A stretch of DNA of 64,000 bases from an uncultured delta proteobacterium (GTDB lineage Bacteria > Desulfobacterota > Syntrophorhabdia > Syntrophorhabdales > WCHB1-27), in contig CAWEPK010000003.1 in the NCBI GenBank assembly GCA_963810935.1, forward strand, positions 111,622-175,621, in the 5' to 3' direction. A program made the translations under genes and the position numbers. Every line of letters starts with the position of its first letter. Position 1 is the first letter of the stretch. Shown here piece after piece: positions 1,423 through 62,512 of this stretch. The notes under the pieces were generated by a model. It saw only the letters and a list, made by a program, of their open reading frames with translations, made no database searches and was not told the DNA's origin.

Positions 1423-1715
1423 AGTGTAAAAGCGTGCGTGGTGGGTGGCTGGACTGGCCGCATGAAGGATACGTCCCTATGCGGCGCCCTGCTCGCCTTG
1501 CGCCCTCTGACTTACCACCCCCATGCACCGTGGTTCCTTTCAGCACTCCGGGAACGTAGGGGCACCCGGCAAACCTACTTTTAACTGATAGGCCCGGTCA
1601 GCAAGGCTCCCATTGCATCCGCATATGAAGCATCCTCCATGCGGCTCCTCCGGCCACGGCCGCCGCAACCGAATAAAGCGCATTTATAAGGCGGCGGCAA
1701 GAGCGGGCTGTACGA
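1423..1715 (+). repeat. Modular intergenic repeat, copy 1 (module order A-B-C-D)
   Basis: Shares ggctggact, atgcggcgccctgctc, accacccccatgca, ggcacccggcaaacctactt.taactgata and gcggcggcaagagcggg with copies near 2740, 5811, 54355 and 61991. Confidence 0.85.
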
Positions 1716-1957
1716 CATCCATGTTAGATTAGGCACTGCTAACACAAGTCAATTCAATCCGCTGTCCTGAATGATAGCAGATTGCCGATCGAAACAAAGA
1801 GCCGTTTTCCGTGCTTTTTTGTTGTTATTTCTCTTTGATGGGTCTATAGTGACAAAAAGGCCTAAAACCAGTGAACAATAAAAGAAAAAGATAAATGGGG
1901 CCCAGTGTCATCGTCGCAGTTCTTCTTGGTGGTGAAGCCTTCTCGCCATAGTCGCAA

Positions 1958-2590
1958 ATGGAGGGAGGAATGGAAAAGTTCTTACAGCAAATTCTGGGAA
2001 AGCTGCTCAGACTTGAGGACGGCGAGAAGAGAAAGAGACTTGCCGCGCTTTACGCCAATGGTAAGACGTTAGATGTTGGCATGACTCAAAGTCCGAATGA
2101 ACGTTTAACGGGGGATCATGTGGTCGGTTTGGACGTGGTGGTTCCAGCGCACCTCCCCAAAAACTATTCCAGGTTCATACAAGGGGATTGCACACACCTC
2201 AACGCGGTGCTCCAAGGCGAAACGTTTGATACAATAATAGCATTGGAAGTGATTGAACATTTGCCCGATTGGGTCGAGTTTTTTAGGCAAGCGCATGAAT
2301 GTCTTAACCTAAATGGGAAATTCATCGTTTCCACTCCCAGCCCCGTCTTATGGCGAACGGTCTTGGCGAATGGCCTTTTTCCAAAAGGAATATCCTTTAG
2401 CGGAAGGGGGGTTGACGGTAAAATAGCGTGCAAACCGTGGTATGGGCACGTAATATTGCATCAACCGCGTATCTTGAACGCCGTAGCCCAAGAACTGGGA
2501 TTCAAACTTCTGGAAGTACGAAATTCCTCCGAATCCTGCTCGCTTCCGTTCCTTCAAAAGAACCTGTTGTTTGCGTACGTAAAGCATTAA
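1958..2590 (+). CDS. Class I SAM-dependent methyltransferase (AT-richer, probably acquired)
   Basis: TLDVG motif I, GLDV, FDTIIALEVIEHL, LNGKFIVSTP; alternative start 1970. Confidence 0.85.
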   Translation: MEGGMEKFLQQILGKLLRLEDGEKRKRLAALYANGKTLDVGMTQSPNERLTGDHVVGLDVVVPAHLPKNYSRFIQGDCTHLNAVLQGETFDTIIALEVIEHLPDWVEFFRQAHECLNLNGKFIVSTPSPVLWRTVLANGLFPKGISFSGRGVDGKIACKPWYGHVILHQPRILNAVAQELGFKLLEVRNSSESCSLPFLQKNLLFAYVKH

Positions 2591-2739
2591 CCTTTGTTCT
2601 TGTTGAATACGGCTCCAAATCTTCTAATTTTATGTGAAAGGCTATTTCATTTGTTTCAGGAAGGACTTCTTACATGACCCGACATTGTCCAATAGACTGA
2701 ATATCTGCTCTTACGCTTTTAACGCATCACTATGGATAC

Positions 2740-3075
2740 GGTATCCCCTGCTCTTACCGCCGCCAAAGGGATGCGCAACGTAGCTGCTCCGTTAGCGGCG
2801 GTCGCGGCCGGAGGAGCGCCTCAAGGGGTTGCGATATGTGGATGCCATGTGAAGTGCGTCGGCCGGAGGCATACGCATGTACGTCGTAGGGCACGCGCTG
2901 AGCAGGGCGCCGCATCCTTCATATCAGTCGAAAGTAGGTTTGCCGGGTGCCCGCACGGTCGAAAGCGTGTTGAAAAGGTACCACCGTGCATGCGGGTGGT
3001 CCGCAGTAGGCGCGAGTCCAGCCGCCCGCGTTACTCCGCAGTTGCTTTTCGCCTTTTCCGCCGTTTGTCGCTGTC
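2740..3075 (-). repeat. Modular intergenic repeat, copy 2 (module order A-C-B-D)
   Basis: Reverse complement closely matches 54355-54690, but module B (2881-2915) follows module C (2921-3000). Confidence 0.9.
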
Positions 3076-5810: not shown

Positions 5811-5975
5811 AATAAAGGCAAAGCGCATGTGTTGTACGGCCGGACTCGCGCCTGTGCTTCAGGACTTTTGTACCGTGGGGCATCCTGCAAACCTACTTTC
5901 AACTGACAAGCACGGTCAGCAAGGTTCCCGTTTCATCGATAATAGCGGGACACCTGCGGCAAGAACGGGCGGTAC
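5811..5975 (+). repeat. Modular intergenic repeat, copy 3 (internally deleted)
   Basis: ggactcgcgcctg (A), caaacctactttcaactga..cggtcagcaagg.tccc (C, copy-1 type) and gcggcaagaacgggcggtacg (end of D). Confidence 0.75.
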
Positions 5976-5984
5976 GTCTACAGT

Positions 5985-6028
5985 TTGACTGTTGCGACAA
6001 TTGGCGCTATAATATAGTCAAATGTCGC
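5985..6028 (+). promoter_or_regulatory. sigma70 promoter with overlapping inverted-repeat operator of the Xre-RES module
   Basis: TTGACT(5985)-N17-TATAAT(6008); gcgacaattg (5994) and caaatgtcgc (6019) form a 9/10 inverted repeat. Confidence 0.7.
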
Positions 6029-6059: not shown

Positions 6060-6470
6060 ATGAATGTCGAAAACATTCTCGGTCTGAAAGTCAAGATCGA
6101 GAACCCTCTCGATTTAATCCACCTCGGGGCCAGGGGAGTATCAAAAAAACAGATCGGCAGGCTCTCCGAGGCGATGTGCCTGTCCATGGCAACCATCGCG
6201 AATTTGCTGGTAGTAAGCCTCAGAACGATACAACGGCAACCCAAAGGGAAAGTTTTCGATAAGAATGTGTCCGAACGCGCTATTAAGCTGGCTCAGCTTA
6301 CGGCCCACGGCGTCAGCGTTTTTGGAGCCAGGGAAGAATTCTGCGTCTGGCTTCAGACGCCGGTCGTTGCCCTCGGAAACAAAACTCCCATGAGCATACT
6401 CGACTCCACAATGGGCGTCGAGCTCGTCGACGATATCATCGGCAGGATAGAACACGGCGTCTTCTCGTGA
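6060..6470 (+). CDS. Type II antitoxin, Xre/MbcA/ParS family
   Basis: HTH (VSLRTIQR) plus C-terminal VFG...WLQTPVVALGNKTPMSILDS...GRIEHGVFS. Confidence 0.92.
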   Translation: MNVENILGLKVKIENPLDLIHLGARGVSKKQIGRLSEAMCLSMATIANLLVVSLRTIQRQPKGKVFDKNVSERAIKLAQLTAHGVSVFGAREEFCVWLQTPVVALGNKTPMSILDSTMGVELVDDIIGRIEHGVFS

Positions 6471-6925
6471 TCGTCTATCGAATCAGCTCACGCTTACACG
6501 CTCGAGACCTCTCCGGGGCGGGCGCCGGGCTTCACGGCGGCCGATGGAACCCTAAAGGGGTCAATGTAATATACGCGGCAGAGAGCAGGGCCCTCGCCGC
6601 CCTTGAGCTATATGCAAACCGTGCAAGGGCGACGGCGCTCTCAAACCTCAACCTTGTGTCTCGCGTTGTCCCCGATGGCGTCCCCGTAAAGAAGCTTCTC
6701 CCTGCCGACCTTCCTGCGGGGTGGAATGTCTATCCAGCGCCCGATGTCCTTGCCGACATAGGCGGGAGGTGGGCGATGTCGATGGAGACGCTCCTGTTGT
6801 GTGTTCCGTCAGCGCTCATGGAAAAAGAGTTCAACTACATCATCAACCCCGCCCATGCCGACATGACGAAGTTAACGATTGGAGACATCGAAGAGTACAG
6901 CTTCGACCAACGGCTCCTCGAATAG
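6467..6925 (+). CDS. RES-domain toxin (NAD+-consuming ParT/MbcT-like)
   Basis: VYRI, GGRWN, YAAESRALAALE, VPSA, NYIINPAH; GTGA overlap with the antitoxin. Confidence 0.92.
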   Translation: MIVYRISSRLHARDLSGAGAGLHGGRWNPKGVNVIYAAESRALAALELYANRARATALSNLNLVSRVVPDGVPVKKLLPADLPAGWNVYPAPDVLADIGGRWAMSMETLLLCVPSALMEKEFNYIINPAHADMTKLTIGDIEEYSFDQRLLE

Positions 6926-14308: not shown

Positions 14309-14349
14309 CTCACCCTTTGATATGAACACCCTGCTGTTTGCGGCGCATC

Positions 14350-14418
14350 CGTCATACCGGCGAAAGCCGGTATCCAGAGAAGTGCCGAACTGGATGCCGG
14401 ATCAAGTCCGGCATGACG
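14350..14418. repeat. REP/RPE-like palindromic element
   Basis: cgtcataccggcgaaagccggtatcca...tggatgccggatcaagtccggcatgacg: paired hairpins closed by CGTCAT/ATGACG; related copy at 62318. Confidence 0.8.
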
Positions 14419-14450
14419 AAGGGCAGTAATACCCTGCTCCTGCAGCAAGG

Positions 14451-52994: not shown

Positions 52995-54357
52995 ATGGCG
53001 AATAAGCGCAAGACGGTTTTCATGTGCGATTCGTGCGGGCACGAGACGGCCAAATGGGTCGGCAAATGCCCGAGGTGCGACGAATGGGACACGATGCGGG
53101 AGGTCGAGGCGGTGCCGGAAGGCGCAGATGCAGGCGTCGTGGCGACGCCCGGTAATCGTCGAGGACGAGGAGTTCGTTGAAGAGAGGATTACCCTCGGCA
53201 TCGACGAGATGGACCGCGTCCTCGGGGGCGGCCTGACGAAAGGCTCGTCGATATTGCTCGGCGGCGACCCCGGCATAGGCAAGACCACCCTCTCCTTCGC
53301 GGTTGCGGCCAGATTGTCCGACCTCGGGGTGAAGGTGCTCTACGTCTCCGGCGAGGAGTCGCTCAGGCAGCTCGCCGGGAGGAAAAAGCGCCTGGGCCTC
53401 AAATCGCCTTTCTCGCTTCTCGTGACGAACCGGCTCGACGACATCACGCAGGCGGTCGAAAAAGAGGACTACGGGCTGCTCATCATCGATTCGATCCAGT
53501 CGATTTATAATTCCAGGCTTGCCTTCCTGCCGGGCAGCACGAGCCAGATCAGGGACGTAAGCTCCAGGCTTATAAGGGAGCTGAAAAGCCGGGAGATCAC
53601 CCACGTATTCATCGGGCACGTGACGAAGGAAGGGGCCATCGCGGGGCCGAAGATACTTGAGCACATGGTAGACACGGTGCTCTATTTCGAGGGCGACAGG
53701 ACCATGCCCTACCGCATGCTCCGGGCGATCAAGAACAGGTACGGCCCAGTCGACGAGATCGGCCTTTTCCAGATGTCCCAGACGGGCCTCGTCAGCGTCG
53801 AGCCGTCCCTTTATTTTTTATCGGAGAGTGGCCAGGCCGGCCCTGGCAGCACGCTCTTTCCGCACGTAACCGGCTCGCGCCCGCTGGTGATGGAGGTGCA
53901 GGCCATCTGCCCCAAAACCAGCTTTTCCTTCTCTAAGAAATTATCGATAGGCTACGACGTGAACCGCCTATTCATACTTGTGGCGGTATTGGAGAAGTCG
54001 CTCGGCATGCCTTTTTCCGACCGCGACGTCTACGTCAACCTGACCGGCGGCATCAAAGTAGGCGAGCCGGGCATCGACCTCGCCATTGCCGCCTCGATAC
54101 TATCCAGCCAACGCGACGAAACCTGGGGAGAGGCCGCGTTCTTCGGCGAGATAGGGCTGACAGGCGAGGTGAGACGGGTAGTGGCTGCGGAGATGCGGCT
54201 GCGCGAATGCGAAAGGCTGCATATAAAAAAGGTATTTTGCCCGCCGGCAGGGGAGACACCGCCGGGCATAGAGGTAGTCCCGATCAAGCACGTGCGAGAG
54301 TTGTACGGGCATCTGGCGAAGCAGGGCGCGCTGACGGGGACCGGAGCGCGCGGATAA
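52995..54357 (+). pseudogene. radA: DNA repair protein RadA/Sms, frameshifted at about 53110-53150 (probably an assembly error)
   Basis: [17 protein letters not shown] zinc finger; GGDPGIGKTT, YVSGEES, IDSIQ, KNRYG, GEIGLTGE in the next frame. Confidence 0.92.
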
Positions 54358-54690
54358 GACAAAAAGGCGAAAAAGCAAATGCGGAGTACTGCGGGCGGCT
54401 GGACTCGCGCCTGCTGCGGGGCCGCGCTATGCGGCGCCCTGCTCAGCGCGTGCCCTCCGACGTTTACCACCATGCATCGTGGCACCTTTTCAACAGGCTT
54501 GGAACGTGGGGGTACCCGGCAAACCGAGTTTCAACTGATATGGGTTCGCCTCCGGCCGACGCACTTCACATTGCATCCACATATCGCGACCCCTTGAGGC
54601 GCTCCTCCGGCCGCGACCGCCGCTAACGGAGCAGCGATGCTGCGCATCCCTTTGGCGGCGGTAAGAGCGGGTGGTACGATAGGCATGGCG
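54355..54690 (+). repeat. Modular intergenic repeat, copy 4 (full length, A-B-C-D)
   Basis: Close match to copies 2 and 6; starts at the radA stop codon. Confidence 0.92.
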
Positions 54691-54849
54691 ATGCATTCAA
54701 CAGTATAGAAGCAAAAACTAAGCATATCGAACAACGTCATGTGTGAGAATTACTTCTTGAAATATTTACTTTATTTCATTTCTGGTTAATGCAATAGTAC
54801 AAGTGGAGAGCAAAGGACTAAGAAAAACATGTGACCGAGGAGGAGAAAA

Positions 54850-55564
54850 ATGAAGCAACCCTTGGGTCTCCTATTACTTGTTGCCGCCGTTATTTGCGCC
54901 GCTGGTTGTAGTACCACTTCGTCGGGTATCAATCGACAACAGATCGTAAATAACAGTCCGAAATCGTTGCCTTTCAAAGTCATCGTCAGTGAAAAGGGGA
55001 AAGACATAGAATCCGTAGGCACGGCTGAACAAGTGAATTATAAGGAACTGTTGCCTTTGTTTGGTCTTAGCAGCTTTGGTATTGCGCAGGCTCGCAAAAA
55101 ACGAGACGGCCATCGCAGCAATCCAGGGTAGGTTTGCCGCGGGCCAGGCGTTTGAAGAGACGGGAAGGGCAAGGTGCAGCCCTGATTCCGGGGCAAGCAT
55201 GGTCAAGCTCGAACTGCTTCATTTTAAACACTTCGGCTCTGCGAAAAAACCTGGTTATGTAGGAGTGAGCGGATTAATGCAATTCAGCTCAGAACTGATC
55301 GGCTCCCATCAGACGACGATCTCTTCGTACGCCTTTGTCTGGTACACAAAAGGTACTTTCTTCGCGAGCCAGGAAAGGGATATTCTACGCGAAATCATGG
55401 AAAACGCTCTTGAGCATTGGGGCCAGCAATTTGGTGACGTGCCATCAGCCGCAAAAGGTGTTACGGGTTTCCCCGGTCCAGGATCAGGCCAATTCACGGT
55501 TGGCACCGCTGACTACGTTTATGACATCTTCAAGCCGATCCCCGACAAAGTCGGTCCCAGATAG
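54850..55564 (+). CDS. Hypothetical lipoprotein, AT-richer, probably one gene split by a frameshift at the A6 run near 55096
   Basis: GGAGGAG RBS, AAGC lipobox; ORFs 54850-55131 and 55061-55564 join if A6 is read as A5. Confidence 0.6.
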
Positions 55565-55600
55565 GGGATGTAGTTGACTAAGTTGACACGGGCAAGATAG

Positions 55601-55650
55601 CCCGCAGCAGGCGCGAGTCCAGCCGCCCGGAGTACTCCGTCTCCGCTTTC
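55601..55650 (-). repeat. Modular intergenic repeat, copy 5 (module A only)
   Basis: Reverse complement cggagtactccgggcggctggactcgcgcctgctgcggg differs at one base from 54382-54420. Confidence 0.85.
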
Positions 55651-56858
55651 TTAGGATTGGCGATTCTTATAATCCGCGTACCGGAACCGCTTTACGGTTT
55701 CCACCTCACCCCCGCGCCGCAGCACCGCGATGTCGGGTAGGCCTATGCCGTTGAACGTTGTGTTCTTTACTATGCTGTATAGCGCCATGTCTGTAAAGAC
55801 CAGCCTGTCGCCGCGCGCAAGCTGCTCTGTCGAATGAGTAATCGCCCATTACATCGCCCGCGAGGCAGCTTGGTCCGCCTATGCGGTATGTGTGCTTCTT
55901 TTCGCCGGGCGCGCCGGAGCCCAGGACTTGCGGCCTGTAGGGCATTAGAAGCACGTCGGGCATGTGTGTCTCTGCTGAGGCGTCGAGGACTGCTATCTCG
56001 CCGTCGTTCTCGTACTATGTCGATGACCGTTGCTATGAGCACGCCTGCGTTTAATACGCTCGCCTCGCCCGGCTCCAGGTAGACCTGCACGCCGTATTTT
56101 TTCTTGAAGGCGTTTATCAGGCTGACGAGGCGGTCGATGTCGTAATCGTCGCGCGTTATATGGTGGCCGCCGCCGAAATTTACCCATCGCAGACCTTCAA
56201 TATACGGGCCGTACAGCCTTTCGAACGATGCGAGGACCCTTTCCATGACGTCGGAACCCTGCTCGCACATGGCGTGGAAGTGGAGGCCGTCCACCAATCC
56301 GCGCGCGCCGGGGAATTCACGGTCGAATATATCGTGTGTTACCCCAAGGCGCGAGAGGGGTGTGCAGGGGTTGTACATGTCATGTGCGATCTCGCAGTGT
56401 CCCGGGTTTACCCGCAGGCCGATCTCAACGCCTTTCTTCCGCGCGGCCTTTCCGTATTTTTCGAGCTGGTAAAACGAGTTGAATATAACGCAGTCGGAAT
56501 ACCTGAGAACGGCGGCGATCTCTTCTTTTTTATATGCAGGCGAGAAGGTGTGCACCTCGCCCCCGAATTTCTCACGCCCCAGCCTCGCCTCGTTCAGGCC
56601 GCTCGCGCATGTCCCGTCGAGGTACCTGCCCATCATCGGAAAGACAGCGAAGGAGGCGAACGCCTTAAGGGCGTGCAGTATCTTGCAGCCCGTCCGCTCC
56701 TTCACGTATTTAAGGACGCGCATGTTTTCTTCAATGAGGGTTTCGTCGAGGAGGTAAACGGGTGTTTTTATCGCGCCCGCCGCAATGGCGAGGAACCTTT
56801 TGTTTGCCGCTTCGAACCGCTTCTTTTTGGCTTCTTTTATGCCGACGGATGTTTTCAA
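55651..56858 (-). pseudogene. nspC: Carboxy(nor)spermidine decarboxylase, frameshifts near 56010 and 55825 (probably assembly errors)
   Basis: HALKAF (PLP Lys), ASGLNEA, GLHFH, NFGGGH, EPGE, HMPDVL.MPYRP, SCLAGD, YSIVKNTTFNG. Confidence 0.9.
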
Positions 56859-58084
56859 GGAAGGGCTGCGTGCTCGACTACCTGCCACGGAAGGCCGTAC
56901 TTGTTGAGCGCCTCCATGAAGCCGTCCGGGTCGAGCTGCTCTATGTTATATACGCCTATGCCTTGCCAGGCGCCGGTTATGAGCATCATTGCGCCGATCA
57001 TCGCGGGTACTCCTGTTGTGTAAGCGACTGCCTGCGTGCCCGTCTCGGCGAATGCCTGCGCGTGGTCGCACACGTTGTAAATATACCTTGTGAGGGGCCT
57101 TCCGTCTTTTTTGCCGCTCATGATGTTGCCGATGACGGTCTTGCCGCTGTACGTGGGGCCGAGGGAGGCGGGCTCGGGAAGCAGGCTTTTCAGGAACCTG
57201 ACGGGGACCACCTTGCAGCCTTCGTAGTCGACCTCGTCGATCCTCGTCATGCCTACGTTCCGGAGCACCCTGAGGTGATTGAGGTAGTTGTCGGAGAATG
57301 TCATCCAGAACCTTGCCCTCTTGATGCCGGGCATGTGGCGGACAAGCGATTCGAGCTCCTCGTGGTAAAGGAGATAGCTCTCTTTCGGCCCTGCTACAGG
57401 GTAGTCGAATGTGAAATGGACGCTGCTTTCCTCGATTATCGCGGGCGTCTCGGCCCATCCGCCATTATCCCAGTGGCGCACGGGCTGCGTCACCTCGCGG
57501 ATGTTGATCTCCGGGTTGAAGTTCGTCGCGAACGCATGTCCGTGGCTGCCTGCGTTGCAGTCGAGGATGTCCAGGTAATCGATCTCGTCGAAGAGGTGTT
57601 TTTGCGCGTACGCGGTGAAGACGTTCGTCACGCCGGGGTCGAAGCCGGAGCCCAAGAGCGCCATGATCCCTTTTTGCCTGAACCTCTCCTCGTATGCCCA
57701 TTGCCAGCTATATTCGAAATGGGCCTCGTCCGGCGGCTCGTAGTTTGCGGTGTCAACGTAGTCCGTGCCCGTCTCCAGGCAGGCGTCCATGATGTGTAAG
57801 TCCTGATACGGGAGGGCGAGATTCAGGACCAGGTCCGGGCTGAACCGCATGATAAGGCGCGCCAGCTCGGCAGTGTTGTCGGCATCGATTTGCGCGGTCT
57901 CGATCTCCCTGCCGTATTTTGCGCGAATCGCCTCTTTGATCGCCTCGCATTTTCCGATGGTCCTGCTCGCGACCATGATCGCCTTGAAGACGTCCGGGAG
58001 CTGCGCGCATTTGTGCGCGGCAACTGTCGCCACGCCGCCTGCCCCTATAATCAGTATCCTTCCCTTGCGTTCTCTGTTGCTCAT
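56855..58084 (-). CDS. Carboxy(nor)spermidine dehydrogenase (saccharopine dehydrogenase family)
   Basis: IIGAGGVA, NLALPYQDL, YVDTANYEP, GFDPGVT, FATNFNPEINIRE; directly upstream of nspC. Confidence 0.93.
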   Translation of the reverse strand: MSNRERKGRILIIGAGGVATVAAHKCAQLPDVFKAIMVASRTIGKCEAIKEAIRAKYGREIETAQIDADNTAELARLIMRFSPDLVLNLALPYQDLHIMDACLETGTDYVDTANYEPPDEAHFEYSWQWAYEERFRQKGIMALLGSGFDPGVTNVFTAYAQKHLFDEIDYLDILDCNAGSHGHAFATNFNPEINIREVTQPVRHWDNGGWAETPAIIEESSVHFTFDYPVAGPKESYLLYHEELESLVRHMPGIKRARFWMTFSDNYLNHLRVLRNVGMTRIDEVDYEGCKVVPVRFLKSLLPEPASLGPTYSGKTVIGNIMSGKKDGRPLTRYIYNVCDHAQAFAETGTQAVAYTTGVPAMIGAMMLITGAWQGIGVYNIEQLDPDGFMEALNKYGLPWQVVEHAALP

Positions 58085-61946: not shown

Positions 61947-61990
61947 TGTGTCGTGTCGCGCGTATGCAACTACTATGCATCCGGTGGTAG

Positions 61991-62245
61991 TGATAAAGAC
62001 AAAGGCGGATGTTGTGGCAAGGTTAGGACTCGCGCCTGAAGGAATCGCGCTATGCGGCGCCCTGCTCAGCGCGTGCCCTCCGACGTTTACCACCCCCATG
62101 CATCGTGGCACCTTTTCAACAGGCTTGGAACGTGGGGGTACCCGGCAAACCTAGTTTCAACTGATATGGGTTGGCCTCCGGCCGACGCGCTTCACATTGC
62201 ATCCGCCTATCGTGATTTCTCCAGGCGCTCCTTAAGACCACGGCA
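61991..62245 (+). repeat. Modular intergenic repeat, copy 6 (A-B-C and part of D)
   Basis: cgcgctatgcggcgccctgctcagcgcgtgccctccgacgtttaccac...caacaggcttggaacgtgggggtacccggcaaacc nearly identical to copy 4. Confidence 0.92.
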
Positions 62246-62317
62246 GCAATTGGGCCGGGGGCCAATTGCTGCAACTGCGGGTGGGATGTAATTGTAAGGG
62301 CTACTGTTCGCTCTCTT

Positions 62318-62388
62318 CCGTCATTCCGGCGTACGCCGGAATCCATGGATCCGAGAGACCTGGCCTCCGGCTTTCGCCGTGGTGACGG
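62318..62388. repeat. REP/RPE-like palindromic element
   Basis: ccgtcattccggcgtacgccggaatcca...tggcctccggctttcgccgtggtgacgg; same family as 14350. Confidence 0.75.
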
Positions 62389-62512
62389 AGAAAGGAAGAA
62401 AAATCTTCGTGAACGATTGCTGCAACTGCGAGTGGTCGGTAATCGGCAAGGTTGATATTAAGAGAATTTGAGGTGAGGTCGGTGGTTACGGCAATACGTG
62501 GGTGACATATTG

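Follow-up and report, generated by a model that had tools for sequence, protein, structure and literature searches.

A strand-polar hairpin repeat behind stop codons in an uncultured deltaproteobacterium and its relatives, a probable end-decayed descendant of a MITE-like family

The 64,000-nt stretch of DNA analysed here (the window) comes from an uncultured deltaproteobacterium and contains six copies of a repeat which, in the host genus, is a real, modular, polar and multicopy hairpin element. Sequence comparison relates its core by homology to a ~130-bp hairpin of many bacteria. We consider it fairly probable that the element descends from a widespread MITE-like family, having become more elaborate while its ends decayed, and that it serves other mobile elements as a landing pad behind stop codons. 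The host genome (G000) measures 4.06 Mb and is 93% complete, while G001, G002 and similar labels denote genomes of relatives. The elaborated version in the host genus is termed the genus form, and the ~130-bp cross-phylum version the simple form. The window copies, with the parts of copy 4 and two low-GC stretches, are listed below.

1423..1720, + strand: copy 1, near full length, 3' of the DUF3786 gene
1761..2700, no strand: low-GC stretch (45.5%) between convergent copies 1 and 2, with a methyltransferase ORF at 1958-2590
2715..3075, - strand: copy 2, near full length, 3' of the HPF-CSD gene, module C at the second site
5811..5985, + strand: copy 3, partial (~170 bp), between the APC permease gene and an xre-RES pair
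54358..54700, + strand: copy 4, full element, immediately 3' of the radA stop codon
54358..54400, + strand: copy 4 leader, A-rich, with a small hairpin; hairpin plus U-run when read antisense
54395..54463, + strand: copy 4 core rod, left arm, with module A, the GCGCCTG stem, the TGCGGCG motif and the left half of the central palindrome
54464..54545, + strand: copy 4 module C, optional and ~80 bp long, inserted into the central loop in this copy
54487, + strand: TTTTCAACAGGC in copy 4 module C, resembling the canonical right end
54546..54612, + strand: copy 4 core rod, right arm
54616..54662, + strand: copy 4 D hairpin, subtype 1, whose 5' arm could instead pair with GGCGGC of the leader
54663..54700, + strand: copy 4 tail, with the conserved pattern GGGYTGTACT-N8-GTGGGAT (35 aligned tails)
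54721..55590, no strand: low-GC stretch (48%) between convergent copies 4 and 5
55590..55651, - strand: copy 5, a ~55-bp fragment (leader and module A) at the other-frame stop of a frameshifted nspC-like gene
61949..62512, + strand: copy 6, subtype 2 (GCAGCAATTG hairpin), near full length, occupying the gap between two convergent stops

All six copies were present at the positions and on the strands reported by the first-pass annotation, which had also named the neighbouring genes (DUF3786, HPF-CSD, APC permease, radA, nspC and TPP enzyme) correctly, the nspC-like ORF being frameshifted. Its claim that every copy is about 300 bp long did not hold, since copies 5 and 3 are much shorter. The D stem at 54616-54662 with its G-C version in copy 1, and the GCAGC/GTTGC pairing in copy 2, read as described there. 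Within copy 4, positions 54546-54553 correspond to the place targeted by IS110 in other copies, and about 54580 lies the place targeted by IS1182 in G001. Copy 6 has a REP-like insert near 62318, and its ends resemble those of a G003 copy that bears terminal inverted repeats (TIRs).

Some features of the neighbouring genes were recorded as well. The nspC-like gene (55651-56888, - strand) has an NCBIfam match covering profile positions 1-255 of 380 only; its C-terminal part ends in another frame at 55651, by either an assembly error or pseudogene formation. The last codons and stop position of radA vary among G000, G001 and G002 (window 54330-54357; L173, L184), and this variation sits exactly at the element start. 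Directly 3' of copy 3 lies an Xre-RES toxin-antitoxin pair (6060-6925, + strand).

A profile search of the 4.06-Mb host genome returned 42 repeat loci, a count that includes two IS110-split copies and one segment occurring on two contigs. The loci are clustered, with 30 of the 42 on contigs C7, C17, C3 and C12 and none on C1, C10 or C16. With copy 4 as the BLAST query the element was found in 12 of 41 genomes, all from the host's family; with a G003 copy as the query it was found in 15 of 22 family genomes, against 0 of the 6 of genus g3. The genus form is non-coding, short, dispersed and multicopy, and ORFs overlapping its copies belong to no Pfam family. Its sites turn over: many element sites of G001 are empty in G000, and copy 6 is inverted in G002.

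Alignment of 34 genus copies revealed an A-rich leader, a ~190-nt rod capped by a GTAC-loop-GTAC palindrome, another hairpin, of which there are two subtypes, and a conserved tail. Optional modules occupy fixed places. Module C is found at either of two sites (both are occupied in G000:C7:303404), a small hairpin can occur on the left or the right arm, and there are also unrelated repeats and, in G001, a module of ~85 bp. In the same alignment, the G001 copies have lineage-specific changes in common. Modular build is a known feature of BOX repeats.

The stems of the genus form covary, in agreement with the earlier claim that they are kept despite divergence. Compensatory changes were found at 11 of 29 consensus pairs among the 34 copies, and the covariation score was 0.217 against 0.119 for shuffled alignments, above all 500 shuffles of a control that ignores relatedness. 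The first-pass annotation had further stated that the G-U pairs work on the sense strand only, and here the polarity proved to be reversed. The core folds better antisense to the upstream gene in 34/34 copies, by a mean of 19 kcal/mol, and whole copies do so in 30/34; the D hairpin alone leans slightly to the sense strand (21/34). Copy 4 itself folds weakly on both strands (z -1.7 antisense, -0.7 sense).

The placement on the same strand 3' of stop codons, claimed for the window, extends genome-wide. Convergent gene pairs are uninformative on orientation, and thus the sides of each copy were counted instead, with gene calls for G000 taken from a codon model made for this analysis. Among the 42 G000 loci, 23 have a same-strand stop near the 5' side only and 4 an opposite-strand stop near the 3' side only, while 4 have both and 11 neither; the 23:4 split gives a binomial p of 3e-4. 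For 47 hits in G001 and G002, some of them at sites orthologous to those of G000, the split was 22:2, with 6 both and 17 neither. By local GC skew the G000 copies showed no replication-strand bias (23 vs 19). A likely cause of the orientation bias is selection against having the strongly folding strand in the host mRNA; that strand would face antisense traffic instead. According to the available text of Delihas 2011 (PMC3184786), ERIC, Correia and BOX-type repeats at gene 3' ends are co-transcribed and can affect mRNA stability. Compared by description, the present element is like them a long imperfect palindrome at gene 3' ends and, unlike them, has a better-folding strand that is not the mRNA strand.

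The simple form is distributed far more widely. A core pattern scan found at least 121 loci, and 106 of the 121 listed also have the expected downstream motif; record titles among the matches listed name deltaproteobacterial groups, NC10, Nitrospirota, Acidobacteriota, Planctomycetota and Firmicutes. A second core pattern matched 92 of the 401 genomes of the host's phylum, with 0 matches for a backward control, and the strict canonical pattern has no match in G000 itself. The simple form is a ~130-bp rod with A-tract and T-tract ends. A cross-phylum covariance model built from other lineages only matches 10 of 17 genus loci and 7 of 9 other loci of the family; it finds six places in G000, two of which are the element under study, and in the window it detects copy 2 only, weakly (E 0.018). 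The genus form exceeds the simple core two- to threefold in length and has a longer stem, extra stems, the D hairpin and the optional modules. Between lineages the outer arms vary freely and the inner core is kept. At least three more core subfamilies with other arms were noticed (G000 C3:42632, C5:166603, C8:229756, C8:479049, C8:273772 and C7:664), and one of these is often inverted just 3' of the genus element.

The polarity and pairing of the simple form raise the question of function. Simple-form sequences fold better on the same strand as the genus form in 82 of 88 cases, and in the cross-phylum alignment, whose structure was predicted on the antisense strand, 134 G-U cells fall on that strand against 14 on the other. 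Compensatory changes affect 13 of 23 pairs (58 sequences), and the central stem covaries as GTAC/GTAC, GTAG/CTAC and GTAT/ATAC. Together with the 34/34 polarity in the genus and a leader that reads as a hairpin plus U-run on the antisense strand, these data would suit a functional structured RNA or cis element on that strand, maintained by selection and simply carried by MITE ends, such as a binding site of a conserved host protein, or a terminator or insulator that would counter convergent transcription. We regard this explanation as rather unlikely. It is at odds with the patchy presence and copy numbers that run from 0 to more than 100 across the 401 phylum genomes, as well as with frequent truncation and disruption by insertion sequences (IS), and some of the invariant bases of the cross-phylum core were fixed by the search patterns. 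A terminator search gave a single terminator-like match, at chance level, and a consensus scan picked up no outward promoter in the element tail.

The element had been described as unrecognised, and with respect to Rfam this was borne out. The window gave no match at gathering score, with only sub-threshold miRNA hits in 54300-55800, and 20 canonical loci likewise gave only sub-threshold miRNA hits besides one unrelated tRNA. Because the better-folding strand is antisense, a 3'-UTR RNA role is weakened. The earlier proposal of a structured, non-autonomous element at transcript ends is supported, but not as an isolated new class, since the core shares homology with a MITE-like hairpin that occurs widely.

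The core has a precedent in Geobacter metallireducens. The Gmet_R1 family, with 24 copies, is listed among "predicted short RNA" elements by Aklujkar et al. 2009 (PMC2700814) and, in the available parts of that paper, resembles the present element in being multicopy and intergenic with the central palindrome GRCGTAGCGCTGCTACGCC. Judged by this published motif, the GRCGTAS-loop-STACGCC palindrome in a multicopy intergenic element places the core with Gmet_R1. The cross-phylum model that also matches the genus element matched 8 of 9 loci with the Gmet_R1 palindrome motif; hence the core had already been noticed, but without characterisation. Gmet_R1 is described without a mechanism in the parts of PMC2700814 at hand, and the genus form differs in being longer, with extra stems, the D hairpin and optional modules. 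Across the open-access papers covered, no report on the cross-phylum family was found beyond this Geobacter note.

The marks of a MITE are found in the simple form. It has inverted ends of IS5/IS1182 type, and in G041, with 694 end-motif matches, 7 of 11 copies are flanked by an exact 4-bp duplication, so that ends and duplication together agree with those of a MITE. Of 41 canonical left ends, 28 come immediately after a stop triplet (TAG 13, TGA 9 and TAA 6). It should be pointed out that TGA does not fit a YTAR target, and its presence before 9 of the 41 left ends therefore counts against the MITE reading. As far as the accessible text of PMC3189936 goes, the IS5-type MITEPsy1 of Pseudomonas syringae duplicates CTAG or YTAA and is like the simple form short and gene-less, with an A-run in its inverted ends and a 4-nt duplication. 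Unlike MITEPsy1 as described there, the genus form mostly lacks ends, no partner IS was found for it, and its interior is strand-polar and conserved across phyla.

For the genus form, an automated end-against-end test found a TIR in 0 of 33 copies; thus, it is not an intact MITE member and works like a decayed one. Flanking direct repeats longer than 9 bp were absent from 41 genus loci, at which the true ends are uncertain and 4-bp duplications cannot be scored. The first-pass annotation had seen no terminal inverted repeats or target site duplications (TSDs), which is correct for the window copies and does not apply to one G003 copy, which has CTAG on both sides, a 9/11 inverted repeat and a right end resembling that of window copy 6. 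A relic of the ends also persists in genus copies: YTGTTGB, a remnant of the canonical left end, occurs in 10 of 34 G001 leaders, with ~1 expected.

No cognate transposase for the repeat was found. A DUF772 transposase was present in 3 of 5 genomes in one search and 2 of 5 in another, and was not found in the repeat-rich G041, G042, G396, G358 and G084, draft genomes of a kind that may lose IS copies. At a DUF772 transposase locus of G044 (L219), the end begins with the same 11 bases as the outer end in G041, so the best transposase end match lies in a genome other than G041. A search for an autonomous IS with the G003-type end gave 32 matches in viral contigs, all of them lacking both a second end and an evident transposase, and in genomes just 9 matches to this end in 5 genomes, some of them coding. 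As a separate observation, L226:1064-2155 of G002 contains two inverted 157-bp MITE-like hairpins with A-tract ends around a DDE transposase fragment.

Enzymes of the HUH/RAYT, IS110 and reverse transcriptase (RT) types had been proposed as mobilisers, and none of them fits. The repeat lies beside 1 of 28 Y1/RAYT loci in five carrier genomes and 0 of 7 Y1 loci of its own genome, and the sole adjacent locus carries it on one side only and has its own inverted ends. (At L182:3377-4293 of G001, a RAYT-like gene with its own short inverted ends was noticed 40 bp behind an element copy.) REP or REPIN identity was also rejected: a REP unit is a 20-40-bp stem-loop tagged GTAG or CGTC (PMC3733652), the unit here is a 130-250-nt rod, and CGTC REPs occur separately, as inserts. 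CGTC-type REP doublets were seen at window 14348-14420 and near 62318, with 25 genome loci by one pattern. Mobilisation by RT was not supported, as no RVT_1 was found in G000 (93% complete) or G002 and neither long duplications nor transduced genes were seen; RVT_1 is present in G001, G003 and G004. An IS91/ISCR-type Y2 transposase was found in 0 of 5 genomes by a search that was likewise silent on its control set.

These data also bear on the idea that the core is the ssDNA substrate of an HUH-type or other hairpin-reading recombinase, inserting with polarity 3' of stop-like sites and causing no duplication. The strand-polar fold with fixed bulges, the fixed orientation to the stop triplet (TGA included) and the missing TSDs of the genus form would suit such a process. 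We nevertheless judge it quite improbable, given the adjacency to just 1 of 35 Y1 loci, the even 23 vs 19 distribution between replication strands, the 4-bp TSDs in G041, and the neighbour genes at 80 cross-phylum loci, none of which recur beyond common metabolic and regulatory families.

IS110 elements insert into the repeat, not moving it, and are therefore unfit as mobilisers. G000 has four IS110 copies (NF033542), three inserted at the base of the central hairpin and one at a matching site outside the repeat. In their long right end the left target recurs unchanged, together with the complement of the right target, in bridge-RNA order, the order of guides being that given in the accessible description of IS621 (PMC11208160). 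A DEDD recombinase, a CT core, the long right end and the guide text place them in the IS110/IS1111 group, with guide function predicted from the letters of the DNA. Homologues occur in 12 of 22 family genomes. As judged by eye, 17 of 24 IS110 loci with a readable end lie in the hairpin family, of which a narrow script motif flagged 6; five of the seven ends outside the repeat come from genus g3, where they have another common target.

The predicted guide loops differ among G000, G004, G012 (two), G014 and G019; they are directed to the stem foot, to the loop from the other side, or to the right arm. Guide text matches each target, some right guides imperfectly. At least five predicted guide loops directed at the hairpin thus seem to be present within a single IS110 clade. 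REP-targeting IS110 elements are known in IS621 (PMC11208160), ISPpu10 (bioRxiv 10.64898/2026.03.19.712850) and ISPpu9; going by the accessible parts of these sources, the present clade is similar in placing a CT-core bridge-RNA recombinase in a repeated intergenic hairpin, with the short left and long right ends of the IS1111 group. It differs from IS621 and ISPpu10, as these are there described, in that a single clade has at least five predicted guide loops, whose targets lie at different positions within one repeat family and in either orientation of it. Such apparent natural guide programs offer a ready series for studies of bridge-RNA evolution and tests of target structure. IS1182 (NF033551) occupies one right-arm position in 4/4 G001 copies, in both orientations. 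The data suggest that IS110 and IS1182 parasitise the repeat, and nothing suggests that they move it. At G000 C7:15745-17505, the element halves around an IS110 are of different subtypes, which suggests recombination between IS copies that shuffles element halves.

We thus return to descent from a MITE-like family as the preferred explanation. The repeat would have spread by transposition in trans, through an IS5/IS1182-type DDE transposase, into stop-codon-like YTRR sites, and would have survived mostly where the stop codon stayed intact. Most copies would since have been left without usable ends, and further change in the decayed copies may come from nested insertions, from deletions and from recombination of one copy with another. 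The central hairpin is abundant, intergenic and conserved, and for this reason repeated reprogramming of IS110 bridge RNAs towards it is predicted, comparable to that of IS621 towards REP sequences. If the element is merely a decayed MITE, it still accounts for much of the intergenic DNA of these anaerobes and cautions against naming such repeats new ncRNAs.

Descent from a plain MITE does not explain everything. The lack of a cognate transposase, the missing match of G000 to the strict canonical pattern and the detection of a single window copy by the covariance model weigh against the preferred explanation. Varying outer arms around a conserved inner core are the reverse of what a plain MITE would lead one to expect. 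The strand-polar inner fold kept across phyla remains beyond such an account and leaves room for a functional RNA or an ssDNA substrate. Furthermore, most genus copies are without TIR or TSD, yet the G001 copies have lineage-specific changes in common, and hence some process still spreads or homogenises them. An inner fold conserved across phyla with varying ends suggests a reader protein. A bolder view, which we hold as a tentative possibility, is that the core is a cross-phylum, strand-polar, structured nucleic-acid module read opposite the upstream gene by a conserved protein of the host or of a mobile element; it would ride in unrelated MITE ends and form a universal safe harbour tracked by bridge-RNA recombinases through repeated guide reprogramming.

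The DNA enclosed by neighbouring copies was considered as well. Five of the six close pairs not split by IS110 are convergent, and low-GC DNA is frequent between convergent copies. Between radA and nspC, each of three genomes has a different, unrelated cargo, the G001 and G002 orthologues of 54721..55590 containing unrelated DNA. Counted per copy, a 3' flank of 900 bp or more free of native-type genes was seen in 12 of 38, compared with 76 of 560 control gene ends (p=0.007), and two other repeats gave 1/83 and 1/25 in the same test. These observations could mean that inverted element pairs act as composite units in the manner of IMU-type elements, taking up or swapping accessory genes, a reading which we nonetheless find highly improbable. 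Per intergenic gap, the link to foreign DNA is not significant (10/32 vs 122/668, p=0.10), and for convergent gaps the counts are 3/12 vs 26/79. Non-orthologous copies have no cargo gene in common, their common 3' flanks being other repeats or unassigned short segments, and no 3' transduction of cargo was seen. A cupin gene between two G001 copies has no recognisable copy beside it in G000. With no per-gap significance and no common cargo gene, the pairs are therefore read as tolerant junctions in which each gene end has a copy of its own.

Two other repeat arrangements deserve mention. A second repeat family in G000, a GGAGGCTCC..GAGGGGGCG hairpin, has 84 loci by a loose pattern (examples are C8:693694, C5:303332, C1:60715, C10:27182 and C8:747578). 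Of its 39 strict-pattern copies, 9 have direct duplications of 23-66 bp of the adjoining sequence on their flanks, sometimes in tandem arrays, and one duplicated segment resembles a piece of a tRNA gene; duplications of such length are uncommon at gene ends. IS200-like Y1 copies lie beside repeats of this second family at C8:661833-662409, C8:732035-732593 and C16:101189-101748 of G000. In G002, divergent pairs of the element under study occur at L170:3984-10802 and L171:2812-9529, each by a duplicated gene 3' end, which we take to be a C-terminal sorting domain, and may mark an invertible or duplicated region.
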